Source: Dictyostelium purpureum (lineage: Eukaryota). From it: DNA of 55,136 bases. Below are positions 4,965 through 53,815 of this stretch, in pieces (position 1 is the first letter of the stretch; the number at the start of each line of letters is the position of its first letter). The notes beneath the pieces were generated by a model that made no database searches, had not been told where the DNA came from, and worked only from the letters and a program-made list of their open reading frames with translations. The stretch is taken from positions 1-55,136 of the forward strand of contig NW_003519547.1 in the NCBI RefSeq assembly GCF_000190715.1. Reading direction: 5' to 3'. Both the position numbers and the translations under genes were made by a program.

Positions 4965-5255
4965 AAATATTGTCTCCTTGTTTTATAAACATAAATATAT
5001 TAATATATTAATACAGTATTTTTTTTTTTTTTTTTTATAAATAAATATAGTTAAGATGTTTTGAAATTTATTTTATATTTTTTTGAATTATTGAAATTAA
5101 AATTATTGAAGATAAATAAAAAAAAAAAATTTTTAAAAAAGGGGGTCAAAACTTTTGCGAAATACTGTATTTAAATGTAAAAACAATTTAAAATTTTGAT
5201 AAATTATTTATTTTATATATAAATATAAAAAATAATACAATTGAAGTCATCAGTT

Positions 5256-5341
5256 GCTCCATTAACTCAGTCGGTTAGAGTGAAGTACTTATAGAATAGT
5301 ATGATATGCTTTGGTCCCGAGTTCGATTCTCGGATGGAGCA
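5256..5341 (+). tRNA. tRNA-Ile (anticodon UAU) with a 12-nt intron
   Basis: Cloverleaf folded by hand. Acceptor stem GCTCCAT/ATGGAGC with discriminator A; D-stem ACTC/GAGT with loop AGTCGGTTA; anticodon stem AAGTA/TGCTT (one G-U pair); loop CTTATAA with TAT at positions 34-36; intron GAATAGTATGAT between positions 37 and 38; T-arm CCGAG-TTCGATT-CTCGG. This matches the intron-containing eukaryotic tRNA-Ile(UAU) architecture. Confidence 0.85.
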
Positions 5342-5937
5342 ATACCTTTTAAGAAGCTTTTATCTTTCCGGTGATCTTTCCGGTGATTTGAAATATGTAG
5401 ATGATTTAAAAAAAAAAAAATTAATATAAATATTTTAATCAAGAGATATGCATCGAAACATTCCCACCCAAATTACAGGTTTTTTATTTATTTTGTACTA
5501 TTTTCTACTCTAAAACCACTTTATAAAGAATTTCATCATGATGTTTAAGAATAAAGAACATCTTTAACAATTTCTAATAACAAATATAATTTCCAAAATT
5601 TGATCGGATAAATAACTGTTAGAAGAGCAAAAAGGTTATAATTTTAGAAAATAGACTATAATGCCTCATTTATTTTGCCCCTAATTGAATATGTATAACC
5701 ATTAGAAGATAAACATGGAAAGGATAAGTATGACAATTAGTTTTCAAATGCCACACCAAAACAGTATTAATTCTTTGTTAAAATAAAAATAATAAAAATA
5801 TTTATCTATTACAGTACCCGAGATATATATTTATACCCTGATGATATTAAATATTTATTTTATATTATTTATTTGAACAACCCAAAACAATTGATATTAT
5901 TAATAAATAATTTTTGAATCAAATCCTTATATTTTAA

Positions 5938-19076: not shown

Positions 19077-20053
19077 TTAATTTATGTTTTGGGGTTTGCA
19101 TTGGGATAACTTGCAAATGGGTTGAAAGTAATTCAGATTTATCGTGATTGTATAATTTAATAGTTGCGAGATAACCCAACCGGTTGGATTTAATTTAGAT
19201 GAATCATTTTCGAATTCAACTTCTTTTTCGATTGTTTTTTCAATGACAACTGGAGCAACTTCTTCATAAACAACTTTTTCTTCTTCAGCTGGTTTTTCTT
19301 CTTCAACTGGTTTTTCTTCTTGTTCTTGTTTTTCTTGTTCTTGTTCTTGTTCTTCTTGTTCTTGTTCAACTGGTTTTGATTCTTCTTCAGTTGATTTTTC
19401 TTCTTGTTCTTCTTCTTCAGCTGGTTTTTGTTCTTCTTGTTCAACTGGTTTTTGTTCTTCTTCAACTGGTTTTTCTTCTTGTTCTTCTTGTTCAACTGAT
19501 TTTGATTCCTCTTCAACTGGTTTTTGTTCTTCTTCAACTGGTTTTTGTTCTTCTTGTTCTTCAGCTTTTGGCTCTTCATTAGCAGCAACTTCATTAAGAT
19601 AATATGAACCTTCAAATTCACATTCAATAATATTAGTGGTATCTTCTGGTAATGAGTTTGGTTTGACGCTGATAACAATCTTTTGAACACCATCTGCAGA
19701 TGAGACTTCTTTTGAAATTAAATATTTGGTTTCGGTTAATGGAGCAAATGAAAGGTATTCTGATCTCTTGAGTTCGTTTAAGATCTTTAATGATTCTTCA
19801 ACATCACCTTTTTCGTAAAGAATGGTAGCAATATTGTTTTGGCAAGAATTTACAACGCTTTCAATGTTAGCTTTGTTTAATGTTGGTTCTTTTTTAACTA
19901 AAGTAATCATCTTTCTTTGGGTTTTAATATATAAATCATACATATTATTCTTTTTAAAGTTTGTACAAAGAAGTCTGAAGATTGGAACTAAAAGTTGAGT
20001 TGAAACAAGTTTTTCGATTTCTTTCATTGATTCTTCAATTTTTTCAACATTTT
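19077..20053 (-). CDS. Same gene, exon 3 (325 codons): helical repeat region then acidic (EEQKPVEE)n tail; inferred total ~580 aa
   Basis: After intron 20054-20171 (118 nt): (K)NVEKIEESMKEIEKLVSTQLLVPIFRLLCTNFKK...ILYEKGDVEESLKILNELKRSEYL...VISVKPNSLPEDTTNIIECEFEGSYYLNEVAANEEPKAEEQEEQKPVEEEQKPVEEE...VVIEKTIEKEVEFENDSSKLNPTGWVISQLLNYTITINLNYFQPICKLSQCKPQNIN*; in frame with track ORF 19077..20027. Confidence 0.7.
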
Positions 20054-26686: not shown

Positions 26687-26777
26687 CTATATGAATGATA
26701 AAATAAAAAAAATGGTTATTATCAAATCCCAAGGCAATATATTTTATAAATGTAATATGGCTATTAAATATAATTAC

Positions 26778-27135
26778 TTTCACATAAAAAGTTAATTGTA
26801 TATTGTGATTCCGACAAAGAGGAGGTATTTGTAATAATTAAATTAAATTTATAAATATTTGATGATACTGGAGTGTTTAAGGTAAAAACTAAAACATTTT
26901 TAGTATTTCGGGTGAATGGAATGTTTGGTTGAATATCTTTAATTTCAAAAGTATTGCTGGGCATCCAATACACAAGATCGTTATTACAAATTGTATTTCC
27001 ATTTTTGGTTCCATAACTTGAATAAACATTTGATGGGTAATCATACAATTTAATGTCCCCATTATTATATATGATTTGGCTATTATTTATTTTAAAAATA
27101 AAAATAAATAATAAAACAAATATTTTTTTTATCAT
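26778..27135 (-). CDS. Large type-I membrane glycoprotein (signal peptide, EGF-like module, single C-terminal TM; possibly Tgr/IPT-TIG-type adhesion protein), exon 1 of 5
   Basis: ATG at 27135-27133; MIKKIFVLLFIFIFKINNSQ looks like a signal peptide; donor GAAA|GTAATT at 26777. Confidence 0.65.
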
Positions 27136-27799: not shown

Positions 27800-27876
27800 A
27801 TGTCTTCTATGGCTTTAATTAAAATCCCACCATTCTATTATGCACATATTTTAGATACTAATACAAATATTGCAAG
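27800..27876 (+). CDS. Major vault protein (MVP)-like, truncated paralog, exon 1 of 3
   Basis: ATG at 27800; MSSMALIKIPPFYYAHILDTNTNIA matches the MVP N-terminus (human [27 protein letters not shown]); donor AG|GTAAAT at 27877. Confidence 0.8.
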
Positions 27877-27961
27877 GTAAATATTAATTATTATAGTAAT
27901 TGTAATTATTTTCTTCAAAATTAAATATTAAAATTTTTTTTTTTTTATTAAAATTTATTAG

Positions 27962-28045
27962 AATGGTTAGTGGACCATTAACTTTATTAGTTAAAGAATC
28001 TGAAAAAATTATTGTTAATCCAACAAAAATGCATACCATTCAAAG
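27962..28045 (+). CDS. MVP-like, exon 2
   Basis: Intron 27877-27961 (85 nt); (R)MVSGPLTLLVKESEKIIVNPTKMHTIQ; donor AG|GTATGT at 28046. Confidence 0.75.
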
Positions 28046-28107
28046 TATGTTTTATACTTTAAGCTTTTATAAAAAATCATATTAACTCTTTATAATTTTT
28101 CAGGTAG

Positions 28108-29218
28108 CGAATATTGCATTATAGAATCTCCTGTATTATTAGACGATGAAAAAAAAATAATTATAGATAAACATGGACAGGTTAAATTAAAGCATGGACA
28201 AAGAGAGGTTAGATTCGAACAGAGTGAGCCTTTCCCCCTTTACCCAGGTGAGTTTATGGTTGGTAAAATTTCGCCTCTTCAAGTTGTATTAAATAATGAA
28301 GCATTGGTTATTAAAGCATTAGTGGATTTTATTGATACCGAAACAAATAAACTTATTAGTGCTGGTGATGAATGGTTATTTCAAGGACCTGCAACTTATA
28401 AACCCCGTGTGGAGGAACAGGTAAAAGAATTAAGAAATGCTACCATTGTTAAGGCACATTGTGGTTTGAAATTAGAAGCAATAAATGACTTTACAGACAA
28501 GGTTTACGGAAAGAAAAGAAAAAGTGGTGACGAATGGTTAATGACTGTTGAGGGTCCCTATATATTGGATGCATATGAAAGATTAAAAGAAGTTGTTATG
28601 CCATATGTTTTAAATGACAACAAAGCAATCATTGTTAAGGCAACTAGAAAATTCACCGATGATGATGGTATCGAAAGAAAAAAAGGTGACACTTGGTTAA
28701 TAACAAAAAGTGATACCCCACTATATTTACCACAACCAACTGTAAAAGTAGAAAAAGAAGTTAATATCACATCATTAACAGCACTTCAATATACAATTAT
28801 TGATAACCCATGGGATGAAGAGACTCAATCCAATAAACTTGGTGAAAGAAAAATTGTTAAAGGTCCAAAGAACTTTTTTACATTCCCCGGTGAAAGCTAT
28901 ACCACTGTCCACAATGTTATGGTTTTAGAAGCAGAAGATGCAGTTCATGTTAAAGTTATGGAAAACTTTGAAGAAACCATTGTAGTTCCAGGTGAGAATA
29001 ATAACAATACTATAAAGACTATTCAACGTAAATCAGGTACCAAATATGATGTATTCGGACCTAGAGAATATATACCACCACTAACTGTTGAAGTTATTAA
29101 AAGAAAAAAAGCAATTTTTAAATTGGAAGATTTCAATATCTATATTTTCAATATCTCCTTTGTTTATGTTTTATCAATAATTTTATTTTTTTATTTTTTT
29201 ATTAAATTATTCTTTTAA
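28108..29218 (+). CDS. MVP-like, exon 3. MVP similarity (vault repeat domains) persists to ~29160, then a 20-aa hydrophobic junk tail and TAA; total 423 aa against ~850 aa for full MVP, so the shoulder/cap-helix half is absent.
   Basis: Intron 28046-28107 (62 nt; acceptor GGTAG). (S)EYCIIESPVLLDDEKKIIIDKHGQVKLKHGQREVRFEQSEPFPLYPGEFMVGKISPLQVVLNNEALVIKALVDFIDTETNKLISAGDEWLFQGPATYKPRVEEQVKEL... carries the diagnostic MVP strings PFPLYPGE, PLQVV, GDEWLF.GP.TY.PR and repeated (K/R)xGDEWL(I/M/V)T. Last similar stretch is KRKKAIFKLEDFNIYIFN (human QAIPLDENEGIYVQD); no frame continues the homology. Confidence 0.8.
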
Positions 29219-29899
29219 ATAAAAGTAGTTTAAAAACATTTCTAATAAAAATAATTTTCTTTTTATTTTTTTATTCCCTCCTTTCCTATTCAATGAGAAT
29301 TTGTAATATTAGATTGTTTATGCCTAAAGTAGCTTTCCCCCATTTATATTTTATTCATTCTACTATTTAGATGATAGTAGACTTCGAAAATAATCGAAAA
29401 AGAAAAAAAGATTATTATTACTATTGTTATTATTTATTGAGCTATTTTAAAAACTGTGTTGAAAAAATGTATTTTTTATAAAAAATAATAGTAAAACATA
29501 CATTTTCTTTTGATTTTGGATTTTTTGAGGTTTTAGTTATGAATATGTATTATATTATTTTATGTTGATTATTGTTTTTTGAAAAAAAAAAAATTTCAAC
29601 CTTTTCTTTTGGTTTTGAATTGGTTGAGGTTTTTATATTTATTGTATTTTTATTAATGGTAGTTACGAAAAAAAATTGGAATCATTATGTTTTTTTTAAA
29701 TAAAAATATTATTTATTATTTTTTTTAAAATATTATATTGTTAGTTTATTATTGAAGAGATGTGAATATAAGCATCAATACAGGTATGACTATAGCACCC
29801 TATAACTATCATTATCCATAGTTATTGTAGTTTACCAAGATCAGATATATCAAACTAACTTGATTTATTTTTGATTTAATATATTGAAATAGGTTTGTG

Positions 29900-30103
29900 T
29901 TTAGTTGTATATAGACTTTCTTTTTTTTTTAAAAAGTGAAGATGATTCTTAATGATGCATTAAGTCATCAGTTTGTTTATTGTGTTTGTTTGGTATGTGT
30001 TTAATACTTATATGAGTTTTACCACACTGCATACAAGTTGGGCACAGTTCGTGTGTGATTTAGAAAACCTACTGAGACTGGGTTTCGAAATTCGTTGGAC
30101 CAA

Positions 30104-30136
<33 letters not shown>

Positions 30137-30260
30137 GAAGATAAGTTCGACCAATTGGCTATCATTGCTTCCTCAGAAGATAATTCCGAAAGCATGTTTT
30201 TATGGCCCCATAAAAAAAGTTTCCCAAAAATCACCCGGAAGATTTTTAGAAACTTAAAAT
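29900..30260. mobile_element. Putative remnants of a tRNA-targeted non-LTR retroelement: two direct copies of ATCTTCACTTTT + oligo/poly(A) read on the minus strand (plus: T10-AAAAAGTGAAGAT at ~29921-29943; T25+-AAAAGTGAAGAT at ~30106-30142), ~130-340 bp downstream of the tRNA-Ser gene
   Basis: Direct reading. Poly(A)-terminated duplicated 3'-end-like segments and less AT-biased composition than surrounding intergenic DNA; position relative to a tRNA gene recalls Dictyostelium TRE-type elements. Family not identifiable by eye. Confidence 0.3.
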
Positions 30261-30263
30261 AAT

Positions 30264-30345
30264 CGACAGCTGCAGGGTTCGAACCTGCGCCTCCGAGGAG
30301 ATCTGATTTCAAGTCAGACGCGTTAGACCACTTCGCTAAGCTGTC
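30264..30345 (-). tRNA. tRNA-Ser (anticodon UGA), 82 nt with long variable arm
   Basis: Minus-strand read: GACAGCT-TA-GCGA-AGTGGTCTAA-CGCG-TCTGA-CTTGAAA-TCAGA-TCTCCTCGGAGG(variable arm)-CGCAGG-TTCGAAC-CCTGC-AGCTGTC-G. Anticodon loop CTTGAAA gives TGA; class-II tRNA with Ser-type D-loop. Confidence 0.85.
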
Positions 30346-30521
30346 AAGTTGTTGAAATTTCTTTATTCGGTTCCTTACAAGGTTTTTTTATTCCATAACA
30401 GGATAAAAAACACATTGTTTGGGCTATAAAATTGAAAGGAAGGTGTAAAAAACCTATTAACTGCTAATCTGGAGTTGGTGTTTGAAAATTAATATACGGG
30501 GTACATAAATTTCAACAACTT

Positions 30522-30554
30522 GACAGGTTAGCGAAGTGGTCTAACGCTTCTGAC
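30522..30554 (+). pseudogene. Truncated tRNA-Ser 5' half (positions 1-33, 2 mismatches), inverted relative to the intact copy and preceded by the same 15-bp 5' flank (AAATTTCAACAACTT)
   Basis: gacaggttagcgaagtggtctaacgcttctgac vs intact GACAGCTTAGCGAAGTGGTCTAACGCGTCTGAC; the flank at 30507-30521 is the reverse complement of 30346-30360. Homology stops inside the anticodon stem. Confidence 0.6.
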
Positions 30555-30559
30555 GTAAT

Positions 30560-31600
30560 AAATTTCGACAACTCAACTTACAACTGAAAAGCATATCGAA
30601 ATCATCAACAACAAACCTATTAACCAAACCAATGCTCACTCCAAGGAAAACAGATCCAACAAGAAAGAAAAAAGAAGTCGTTCTACCAGGAGAAGACCAC
30701 ATGGAAATAGAGGAAAAAGTCAAGGAGAATTATTTAAAACTCCTAAACAGAAATAGGCTCACAAAACAAACAAAAAAGAACCCTATCAACAGAGGACAAA
30801 AAGAAATGTTGAAAACTCAAATCCAATTTTGTAAGCATGAACTAAATTCAAAATATTCATGCTTACCTTTTTTCTGATCAGGAATTGAATGGTTTGAATA
30901 ATTAGGTTTTTCGAACTCTACATATTATCAGATTGAAATTATGACGTAGGTAGCTGATAGAAGCCAAATTAATTCTTCGTTTTAAAACTGACCATTATTT
31001 CTCGATAATACTAGGTTATGGTGAATAGGGCAGAATATGACTTCTATTTACTTTTTCATAGCAAAAGGTCAAAAATGCGGTCTAATGAATTGAGCAATTG
31101 AAAGAAGCACATCATCAGTAAAACTCTACTTTGCCATAAAGTGCCTCTATTGACATAAATATTTTTTGGCATTTGTGTTACCCTTGATAGACATATACAA
31201 TAGTACCAAAAGTGTTAGACAATTGTAAGTGGTCGCTCATTTCACCACTTGGTCTTCGTTGGCCAAAATATTTATTTGACCGTTTCTTTCTCCCTGAGTC
31301 GATTTTGTAGTTTCCCATTTATAAGAATATAGTTTTATCAGCAAAAAACCAGCCCTTTTCCAACTCAACTGTCTAATCTTGAGAATTGGATATTTCTGTA
31401 TGAAAAAGTGAACATTTTGAACCTTTAAAAAACATTATTATTTTGTAGAGACCCGCTTATATAAATTGAAATATTTATTTGAAAGTTTTTTCGAAGGTAT
31501 CTTTTTATTTTACCTAAATTATGGCTTTGCCAAATTAAAATTAATCTTCTATTTTATCTTTCACTTGACTAATTGCACTCTTTAGGTAACAAACATTTTT
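30560..31600. mobile_element. About 1 kb of atypical, only moderately AT-rich sequence abutting the tRNA-Ser fragment: ORF 30632..30877 with non-Dictyostelium codon choices (AGG, CTC, GTC, AAG, GAG), a perfect 11-bp stem-loop (GTAAGCATGAA-N14-TTCATGCTTAC, 30827-30862) and further short non-AT-biased ORF fragments. Probable degenerate mobile-element DNA, family unknown.
   Basis: Base composition and codon usage read directly (about 60-65% A+T vs about 85% in neighbouring spacers); one minus-strand fragment ~31210-31390 reads ...FIQKYPILKIRQLSWKRAGFLLIKLYSYKWETTKSTQGERNGQINILANEDQVVK*, weakly hATC-like. No intact ORF. Confidence 0.3.
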
Positions 31601-32131: not shown

Positions 32132-32692
32132 ATGAAAATTTTTAAAATTATATTGTTAAATTTAATATTTTTTAAAATTGTATTTTGCCAAGAATGGGTA
32201 AATTTTGTTGGATATAGTAACCAAAATTGTAGTGGAACAGGAATATTGGCAATAATGAAAACAAATGAATGTATAGGACATAGCAAATATATGTGTGATG
32301 AAAAAACAACGATTAATAAACAATATGCATATAATGATTGTGTTAAAGAATACAACTATAAAACAAATGAAAATAACCAATGTTCAGATAAAGGTTTTAC
32401 AACAAGCTGTACAAAAACCGTAAACTTACCAAAGATGTCATATATAATAGCAATGCATAAAAACACTTCTTTAGGCTGCTCTGATGAATCAATTATCCTG
32501 TATAATACTATTCCTCTAGGTATTTGTGATTCTGGTAAGATTTACACATCATGCAATTCTGGTGGCACCGTTTCCTTTGAAATCTATAAAGACTATGAGT
32601 GTAATGAATTAACAAACACTGTAGAAGAACCCATTGGTTGCCACTTTGTTGATTCAAGTGATTCCTATTTGATCAATACATTTTGCACATAA
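32132..32692 (+). CDS. Secreted cysteine-rich small protein, 186 aa (signal peptide + ~16 Cys; ponticulin-like class suspected)
   Basis: ATG at 32132; MKIFKIILLNLIFFKIVFCQ looks like a signal peptide; Cys pattern NCSGTG...ECIGHSKYMCDEK...CSDKGFTTSCTK...GCSDES...GICDSGKIYTSCNSGG...CNEL...GCHF...FCT; TAA at 32690. Confidence 0.6.
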   Translation: MKIFKIILLNLIFFKIVFCQEWVNFVGYSNQNCSGTGILAIMKTNECIGHSKYMCDEKTTINKQYAYNDCVKEYNYKTNENNQCSDKGFTTSCTKTVNLPKMSYIIAMHKNTSLGCSDESIILYNTIPLGICDSGKIYTSCNSGGTVSFEIYKDYECNELTNTVEEPIGCHFVDSSDSYLINTFCT

Positions 32693-52882: not shown

Positions 52883-53815
52883 CTTTCTTTTTGATAATAA
52901 TTCTAATTTTGATTTTAAAGATTCGACTTCTTTATGAGCATATCTATCCAATAATAAATGGTATACATTAACTATGCCACAATTTTCGTTTCTTAAAATT
53001 ATTTCTCTTGTTTCGTTTGTATTCGGGAAGCCTAATGAAACCAAATGATTATAAATATCCTCTTTAATTTCGTAAACTGGCTCTCTTGGTGGTAAAAAGG
53101 ATCTTGGTGGTTCATCGTAATCCATATTTGTCCATTTATGTTTTTTTAATTCTTGAATAGTGGCTCTCTTTTTTGGATCTGGTACTATCATTCTACGAAG
53201 AATGCTCACTGCCTCTTGAGTTAAATGGGTTGGGTCTTCATAATTACCATGAACACTATTATAACTAATTTCAGCTTGAGATTCCCCTTCCCATGGCAAA
53301 TTGCCACAAAGCACTGCATACATAATAACACCCAGACTCCATATATCAACTGGTGGGCCTAAATATTTTTCTGCTTTTAATATTTCGGGTGCTGCATATA
53401 ATGGTGAGCCACAAAATGATTCGAGTAGTTTGCCAGGTTGAATATTATTACTTAAACCAAAATCCGAAATTTTTATATTACCCTCTGCATCCAAAAGTAA
53501 GTTTTCTGGTTTTAAATCTCTATGGACAATTAGATTTGCATGGCAGTATTCGATTGCTGATAACATTTGTCTAAAAAATTTTCTTGCTTCTTTTTCTTTT
53601 ATATACTCCCTTGCAACAATGTAATCAAACAGCTCACCACCTGATACGTATTCCACTATTAAATAGGTTACCCCTTCTTCTTCTCTTTTATCAACAACAT
53701 CTAATAGTTTAACAATATTTGGATGGTCTAATAATTTCATAATATCAATTTCTCTGAAACATGTTTCTTTTTGTTTATTTGATAATTTGTTATTTTTAAT
53801 AAATTTAATTGCAAC
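52883..53815 (-). CDS. MARK-like kinase, exon 2 (catalytic domain + UBA-like domain)
   Basis: Intron 53816-53907 (92 nt); VAIKFIKNNKLSNKQKETCFREIDIMKLLDHPNIVKLLDV...HRDLKPENLLLD...DFGLS...GSPLYAAPE...DIWSLGV...; UBA-like EDIYNHLVSLGFPNTNETREIILRNENCGIVNVYHLLLDR; ...ELLSKRK then donor |GTAAAT at 52882; corresponds to track ORF 52859..53740. Confidence 0.8.

Follow-up and report, generated by a model that had tools for sequence, protein, structure and literature searches.

A conserved short major vault protein with a predicted C-terminal membrane anchor in Dictyostelium purpureum and other amoebae

Is a major vault protein (MVP) gene that stops halfway through the MVP sequence a broken copy, or does it encode a protein in its own right? 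This question is raised by a gene of Dictyostelium purpureum on contig NW_003519547.1 (RefSeq assembly GCF_000190715.1), of which the whole analysed stretch of 55,136 nucleotides is referred to here as the window. The gene occupies positions 27800-29218 of the forward strand and has a coding sequence of 1275 nt, corresponding to 424 residues and a stop codon. Its spliced product (P0001) is 100% identical to the annotated D. purpureum protein DICPUDRAFT_95079 (XP_003290203.1). The initial annotation of this DNA had described three exons, a structure that we confirmed, with the third exon running from 28104 to 29218 (Table 1). It had also proposed that the MVP homology is followed by junk, leaving either a pseudogene or an expressed truncated MVP. 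Our sequence comparisons and structure modelling indicate that the gene very probably encodes a conserved tail-anchored short MVP, in which repeats R1-R7 and the first β-hairpin of R8 are joined directly to one C-terminal transmembrane (TM) helix.

Pfam analysis of the 424-residue product identified Vault_2 (PF17794, 2e-28) and four stretches of Vault (PF01505, 3e-51), with no match to Vault_3 (PF17795), Vault_4 (PF17796) or the shoulder domain (PF11978). In a phmmer search against the PDB, residues 5-415 aligned to MVP residues 6-404 (E 6e-86). The product contains the motifs IPPFYYAHILD, PFPLYPGE, PLQVV, GDEWLFQGPATYKPR, GDEWLM and GDTWLI, in agreement with the first description of the locus, which had quoted such motifs in recognising an MVP N-terminus and about seven repeats. 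Convincing similarity stops at '...AIFKLEDFNIYIF', opposite 'AIPLDENEGIYV' of MVP, which is the first hairpin of R8. The MVP-like part therefore comprises residues 5-~400, that is, R1-R7 plus this hairpin, and the product ends 21 residues beyond it, short of the complete R8-R9 found in shell-forming MVP. It was thus rightly noted at first that the homology ends mid-protein and gives way to hydrophobic residues, 21 in number, and a stop. The seven N-terminal repeats (Vault_2 and Vault) are the same as those of rat and human MVP and of MvpA and MvpB of D. discoideum, with the predicted fold of mouse R1-R7. Compared with shell-forming MVPs, the short protein retains no more of R8 than its first hairpin; R9, the shoulder, the cap-helix coiled coil and the cap-ring are missing, and a predicted C-terminal TM segment takes their place. 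The missing parts are established as necessary for cage assembly, the cap-helix and cap-ring driving formation of the 39-mer half shell.

With an 18-sequence family alignment as input, AlphaFold2 produced a model with a mean predicted local distance difference test score of 90.1, composed of β repeats throughout, with a single helix at residues 404-423 after them. Foldseek matched this model best to the mouse MVP R1-R7 crystal structures 3gng and 3gf5 (target TM-score 0.72-0.75) and then to full vault shells, so that the natural short protein ends almost exactly where the crystallised R1-R7 fragment ends.

The C-terminal tail, ISFVYVLSIILFFYFFIKLFF, consists of 21 hydrophobic residues followed by the stop and is encoded by DNA of 11% GC. 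The most hydrophobic 19-residue window of the product is the C-terminal one, with a Kyte-Doolittle mean of 2.40 at residues 406-424, 0 residues from the end. Across the family, hydropathy is bimodal: the best 19-residue window scores 2.05-3.13 and lies at most 20 residues from the C-terminus in 56/56 TM-tailed sequences, whereas ordinary MVPs reach at most 1.7. Tail length, hydrophobicity and stop position are kept in these 56 homologs. The apolar stretch runs uninterrupted for 19-21 residues at the extreme C-terminus; frequently, basic residues and a short polar extension come after it. Many homologs build the TM core from A/V/G/L and not from F/I/Y/K/N, which argues that the hydrophobic tail is not a by-product of AT-rich DNA. 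On the evidence of hydropathy and modelling, ISFVYVLSIILFFYFFIKLFF is predicted to be a conserved membrane anchor.

The same arrangement characterises tail-anchored proteins of the GET/TRC40 class, such as Sec61β, cytochrome b5 and the SNAREs, which likewise have one hydrophobic segment of ~20 residues at the C-terminus, no N-terminal signal and a large domain predicted to be cytosolic. The short MVP has one hydrophobic segment of ~20 residues within ~30 residues of its C-terminus, and its N-terminus is the conserved first strand of MVP R1. Hydropathy and alignment, with no signal-peptide predictor run, revealed no signal-like N-terminus and no other TM segment. Tail-anchored proteins are a topological class and not a homologous family of the short MVP.

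The residues beyond the TM core vary among homologs. Among short MVPs with at least 8 residues past the core, all encoded outside the window, 8/18 end in -EL (VQEL, VKEL, QNEL, TVEL, MSEL, EAEL, HVEL and, in the annotated Heterostelium album model, VEL). P0133 likewise ends in -EL (KPEL), and P0066 ends in ADL; the homologs concerned in the -EL ending are P0009, P0012, P0022, P0065, P0133, P0136, P0144 and P0233. In a tail-anchored protein such an end would be lumenal, recalling endoplasmic reticulum (ER) retrieval signals of the K/HDEL type, of which only QNEL matches the strict PROSITE pattern. The other dictyostelid short MVPs, including the product of the window gene, end 0-3 residues past the TM core and have no -EL motif.

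The D. discoideum ortholog is DDB_G0282033 (Q54T29, XP_640422.1), with 64% identity over 100% of the query, as measured to a D. discoideum protein in the same 90% cluster as DDB_G0282033. Orthologs of 415-437 residues with the same break point and a hydrophobic C-terminus were present in every dictyostelid retrieved, namely D. discoideum, D. citrinum, D. dimigraforme, D. firmibasis, Tieghemostelium lacteum, Acytostelium subglobosum and H. album. Beyond dictyostelids, TM-tailed homologs occur in Balamuthia, Luapelamoeba, Gocevia, Mastigella, Paramoeba, Flabellula and Nolandella, which we take to fall in Discosea, Archamoebae and Tubulinea; several of these are complete open reading frames (ORFs) from Trinity or MMETSP transcriptomes. 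A profile search of 1.84 billion cluster representatives returned 2430 MVP-like proteins, and the best 150 of them included 29 further TM-tailed representatives. The break point is identical in all members, and F402, located just before the helix, is invariant in the family. The architecture is thereby established as one conserved across Amoebozoa, and the shared break point together with the invariant F402 argues for one ancient event.

Two short MVPs, P0083 from Thecamonas trahens and P0068 (447 and 422 residues, respectively), carry the junction motif of the family, group with the TM-tailed forms in neighbour-joining (NJ) analysis and score +43 and +57 bits in favour of the short-form profile. 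They end in only ~12 aromatic or hydrophobic residues (…EGWLNAFFWLTTHSFA). Their sequences hint that the short form may be older than Amoebozoa, or that the anchor was shortened in apusomonads. A rotifer MVP-like protein, P0050 from Rotaria socialis (551 residues), has Vault_3 and Vault_4 but no shoulder, and contains a segment with a Kyte-Doolittle value of 2.69 located 27 residues from the C-terminus; this segment could be an independent case or a gene-model artefact.

To evaluate selection on the gene, coding sequences of five orthologs were recovered from genomic loci and compared by the Nei-Gojobori method. The ratio of nonsynonymous to synonymous substitution rates (dN/dS) was 0.058 between D. 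discoideum and D. citrinum, 0.108 between D. discoideum and D. dimigraforme, and 0.113 between D. citrinum and D. dimigraforme. The value for D. purpureum and D. discoideum was 0.18, with dS saturated. The short-MVP gene is under strong purifying selection. Its ORF is intact in all species, with no frameshifts or premature stops. In the three close species (D. discoideum, D. citrinum and D. dimigraforme) the tail DNA contains no indel and the stop falls at the same codon, and directly past the stop the alignment breaks into indels. The low dN/dS, the indel-free tail, the kept stop, the collapse of the alignment behind it and the adjacent AATAAA hexamers together indicate a maintained coding sequence and not a pseudogene.

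These comparisons bear on the proposal that a rearrangement, or the insertion of a tRNA-targeted retroelement, cut an mvp gene and left a truncated pseudogene whose tail is read-through into AT-rich non-coding DNA. Several local features would fit such an origin: the tail has the 11% GC of intergenic DNA, its translation is weakly matched by tblastn all over the window, an open stretch of 21 codons is not improbable in such DNA (estimated probability ~0.1), and a tRNA gene and degenerate DNA follow the gene at a distance of 1-2 kb. However, more than 40 distinct homologs across Amoebozoa share the break point and the tail, among them sequences of GC-richer species with A/V/G/L tails and ORFs from transcriptomes, and the dN/dS of 0.06-0.11 between close species, the absence of frameshifts or stops and the conserved stop position all count against a pseudogene. 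In addition, the D. discoideum locus is flanked by other genes, and nothing in it matches the region downstream of the D. purpureum gene. We found neither disabling mutations, nor a dN/dS near 1, nor a truncation restricted to one lineage. We consider an origin as a pseudogene extremely improbable, and with it the view that the homology is followed by junk was abandoned, given the same architecture across amoebae, the purifying selection and the non-syntenic flanks.

An incomplete gene model would offer another explanation of the missing C-terminal half, in which an unrecognised intron after '...IYIF' leads to exons for R8, R9, the shoulder and the cap-helix, whether on this scaffold or on a different one. 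Fragmentation of the D. purpureum assembly, in which this scaffold spans 55 kb, would be compatible with this, as would an atypical GTTTTT intron that the H. album annotation has within the tail. Searches by tblastn with six long MVPs and three MVP C-terminal halves yielded no match past MVP residue ~400 anywhere in the window, so that a downstream exon restoring MVP homology was not found there, and shoulder or cap homology was likewise absent within 10 kb of five orthologous loci, including up to 10 kb downstream in five other species. Together with the Pfam result, this upholds the initial statement that the shoulder and cap-helix are missing. Moreover, at least six amoebae have Trinity and MMETSP transcripts that terminate in the TM tail plus a stop, an AATAAA hexamer overlaps the stop of the window gene, and the unspliced H. 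album tail (...FFKLLVYMFFG*) resembles that of the other orthologs. There is accordingly next to no chance that the short product reflects a gene-model error.

The H. album ortholog model itself, P0007 (L003:11245-11405), contains a GTTTTT...AAAG intron in the tail and predicts 437 residues ending in ...CIDVEL; read unspliced, the ORF ends as in other dictyostelids. Two other candidates for MVP exons were examined within the window. A weak match at 53087-53407 to residues 258-379 was rejected, as it belongs to an ordinary protein kinase ORF. Several long MVPs gave weak coiled-coil-like matches at 19188-19595 on the reverse strand, 8 kb upstream of the gene (E 0.003-0.2 without composition correction); as a candidate cap-helix exon this segment was also rejected, and by its sequence it is most likely a generic coiled-coil match.

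We then addressed how the short form relates to full-length MVPs. Because matches seemed limited to ~1.75x the query length, the query was lengthened with random sequence so that longer proteins could be listed. The best full-length matches of this padded query came from assorted eukaryotes, with 36-42% identity over ~400 residues. Dictyostelid MvpA and MvpB were not among its best 120 matches (at least 295 bits), in which dictyostelid short orthologs scored 399-594 bits, and a search with the full-length protein P0141 returned no named dictyostelid MVP. The placement of MvpA and MvpB outside the best 120 matches indicates that the short form did not arise recently from either. Thus the suggested comparison with the two paralogs excluded a recent origin from them and assigned no parental paralog; on sequence similarity, animal MVPs resemble the short form at least as much as dictyostelid MvpA/MvpB do.

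An NJ tree was calculated from the repeat region, with the tail excluded, of 35 short and 54 full-length MVPs, a set that did not include MvpA and MvpB. It placed 34/35 short forms in one clade with 0/54 full-length MVPs, and the dictyostelid short forms formed a clade in 200/200 bootstraps. In leave-one-out profile scoring, all 35 short forms (35/35) preferred the short-form profile, by +5 to +84 bits, and 34 full-length representatives preferred the full-length profile and were cleanly separated from the short forms. This discrimination between short and full-length sequences is supportive, not decisive. Per-repeat identity between short and full-length MVPs is 0.35-0.44 over R1-R7, equal to that among full-length MVPs. 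In the R8 hairpin, identity between short and full-length forms is 0.17, compared to 0.67 among full-length MVPs.

The conservation of R1-R7 as in shell-forming MVPs would also suit a truncated MVP in soluble form that co-assembles with MvpA/MvpB shells, caps them or poisons them; instead of spanning the bilayer, its tail would take the place of the cap-helix as a helix for protein-protein contact or oligomerisation, or would anchor the protein in the membrane plane or on lipid droplets. In keeping with this, P0083 and P0068 group with the family yet end in ~12 hydrophobic residues, too short for a bilayer. Against it stands the 19-21-residue apolar stretch of 2.0-3.1 on the Kyte-Doolittle scale at the extreme C-terminus, the standard signature of a tail anchor. 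Furthermore, the residue identity of the tail is poorly kept, whereas its hydrophobicity is kept, a pattern more in line with a helix facing lipid than with an interface specific to a protein partner. We regard a soluble protein as quite improbable. The option, raised at the outset, of an expressed truncated MVP that interacts with MvpA/MvpB came closer to the truth than a pseudogene, but overlooked the conserved predicted membrane anchor.

Assembly of the vault cage is driven by the shoulder and the cap-helix, and tail-anchored proteins are inserted post-translationally with their N-terminal domain in the cytosol. Following the rules of the tail-anchored class, the short MVP would be made in the cytosol and inserted after translation, most likely into the ER or another endomembrane, and its rod of MVP repeats would lie on the cytosolic side with R7 beside the membrane and R1 distal. 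In the absence of a cap-helix and shoulder, it would not be able to drive vault assembly alone. As all of R1-R7 are conserved as in shell-forming MVPs, MVP-type contacts are most likely kept, and these may include lateral repeat-repeat packing, the R1 waist contact or the binding of vault partners. Tentatively, the short MVP might tether vaults, half-vaults or vault partners to a membrane, or form an array resembling the vault wall there. A more specific role as a membrane receptor or nucleator for vaults seems unlikely. In that case, C-terminally anchored R1-R7 rods would pack side by side like the barrel wall, with free R1 edges facing the cytosol, and a half-vault could dock waist-to-waist on the membrane, or a vault-like cage could be built on the ER or nuclear-envelope membrane. 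If true, vaults and membranes would for the first time be directly linked at the molecular level, and this in a genetically tractable organism.

Several observations weigh against a tail-anchored short MVP of single origin and with such a function. A single origin is moderately supported: 44% of bootstraps give a clade with at least 30/35 short forms and no full-length MVP, rising to 63% when one intruder is allowed, and strict NJ bipartitions were recovered in 0-15/200 bootstraps, since rogue long branches disrupt exact bipartitions. The profile scores overlap slightly, with full-length MVPs ranging from -64 to +20 bits overall and 177 further full-length MVPs from -35 to +20. Sequence-level selection on the tail taken by itself is weak (dN/dS 0.35-0.65 on ~60 sites), as expected of a TM helix, and is not decisive; the tail changes faster in sequence and retains its frame, length and hydrophobicity. 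Membrane insertion is predicted from hydropathy and the modelled helix only, the tethering function is purely our inference, and neither DDB_G0282033 nor Q54T29 is mentioned in searchable paper texts.

Table 1. Features of the short-MVP gene in the 55,136-nt window
Feature	Position	Strand	Description and evidence
Exon 1	27800..27876	+	ATG; codons 1-25 plus 2 nt; start of MVP repeat R1; spliced translation, MVP tblastn matches 27800-27877
Intron 1	27877..27961	+	85 nt, GTAAAT...TATTAG, 93% AT; absent from D. discoideum-group and T. lacteum orthologs
Exon 2	27962..28044	+	Remainder of R1; spliced translation, tblastn
Intron 2	28045..28103	+	59 nt, GTATGT...TTTCAG
Exon 3, repeat part	28104..29152	+	MVP R2-R7 and first R8 hairpin, to residue 403 '...NIYIFN'; Pfam, PDB alignment, AlphaFold, Foldseek, family alignment
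Exon 3, tail part	29153..29215	+	ISFVYVLSIILFFYFFIKLFF, residues 404-424, predicted transmembrane tail anchor; hydropathy, AlphaFold helix, homologs
Stop codon TAA	29216..29218	+	Equivalent codon in D. discoideum, D. citrinum and D. dimigraforme orthologs
Two AATAAA hexamers	29218-29223, 29244-29249	+	Candidate poly(A) signals right after the stop; sequence only

Intron positions vary among orthologs. Of the two introns in D. purpureum, one follows codon 25 in phase 2 and the other codon 53 in phase 1; the D. discoideum group (loci L001/L004/L005, from 10142) has a single one after codon 47 in phase 0, and the T. lacteum ortholog (locus L002) is intronless.

Downstream of the gene, a tRNA-Ser(UGA) is encoded at 30263-30346 on the reverse strand, as first annotated. 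A 48-bp partial copy of its 5' half, inverted and 96% identical, lies ~160 bp away at 30507-30554 (+). Both are embedded in a block at 30000-31500 with 31-36% GC and no long ORF, in which an 81-residue ORF at 30632-30877 had no Pfam match and no reverse transcriptase or endonuclease remnant was identified. Judging by its sequence, the block may be a decayed tRNA-targeted mobile element. In the D. discoideum group, a polyketide synthase gene lies upstream of the short MVP, and an unnamed gene for 358-383 residues, a gene with an eIF-5/eIF-2B domain and an NSUN2-like gene lie downstream. A tblastx comparison of the 21-kb D. discoideum locus with the window matched the short-MVP gene alone and left the D. 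purpureum downstream region unmatched. The flanks are thus non-syntenic between the two species, so that the tRNA-Ser and degenerate DNA are local to D. purpureum and not the cause of the truncation. Because the match is limited to the gene, they lie outside the conserved unit, and synteny cannot date the neighbourhood. In T. lacteum and H. album, the next called gene begins ~140 bp past the stop on the opposite strand.

Among other features of the window, the next ORF downstream, at 32132-32692 (+), encodes a cysteine-rich protein of 186 residues with a signal-like N-terminus and a Pfam match to CfaA_B_C (counting factor-associated protein, E 1e-10). The upstream ORF at 26764-27135 (-) encodes 123 residues with no Pfam match. 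At 5255-5342 (+), ARAGORN called an 88-nt tRNA-Tyr whose anticodon was given as 'ata' (position 37); this is probably a tRNA-Tyr with an intron, for which the wrong anticodon was parsed.

A study of trypanosome vaults (J Biol Chem 2025, PMC12547018) lists in its Table S3 an 'MVPshort (truncated MVP homolog)' comprising XP_640422.1/DDB_G0282033 and the Mastigamoeba proteins MBAL_000468 and MBAL_014565. In the parts of that paper covered, a table shows DDB_G0282033 spanning only TbMVP1 residues 6-414, and many short forms of other taxa are treated as assembly artefacts. The accession is listed there, and the main-text parts covered contain nothing on a TM tail, conservation or selection. This table entry was the sole mention of the short form in the searchable literature. 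The identifiers DDB_G0282033, Q54T29, XP_640422 and DICPUDRAFT_95079 are absent from the main texts of that literature, in which no paper connects MVP to a tail anchor either. The short MVP appears to have been annotated and catalogued before, and its TM tail and conservation appear undescribed in the searchable literature.

Other short MVP-like proteins are known from Naegleria, where proteins of ~530-560 residues were judged complete at far below 850 residues (PMC3595041, PMC3762200). In contrast to the short MVP, the two Naegleria proteins treated most closely, D2V5B9 and D2W0Z9, keep the shoulder annotation and have reportedly lost part of the repeats, thus retaining the opposite half, and no TM tail has been described for them (PMC3595041, PMC3762200). 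The 2013 paper of this pair describes N. gruberi as being without the vault-specific C-terminal folds (PMC3595041, PMC3762200).

The locus illustrates that in AT-rich genomes a genuine TM tail can mimic non-coding read-through, and that only cross-species comparison separates the two. According to the parts of the trypanosome study covered, vault function has been unresolved since the discovery of the particle, and MVP knockouts show little phenotype (PMC12547018). A paralog that retains the barrel-wall repeats alone, has a predicted anchor in place of the assembly domains and has stayed under purifying selection across Amoebozoa implies a membrane-associated function of the MVP rod that is independent of cage formation. 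DDB_G0282033 provides a testable handle on such a function in Dictyostelium, an organism in which MvpA/MvpB mutants already exist.

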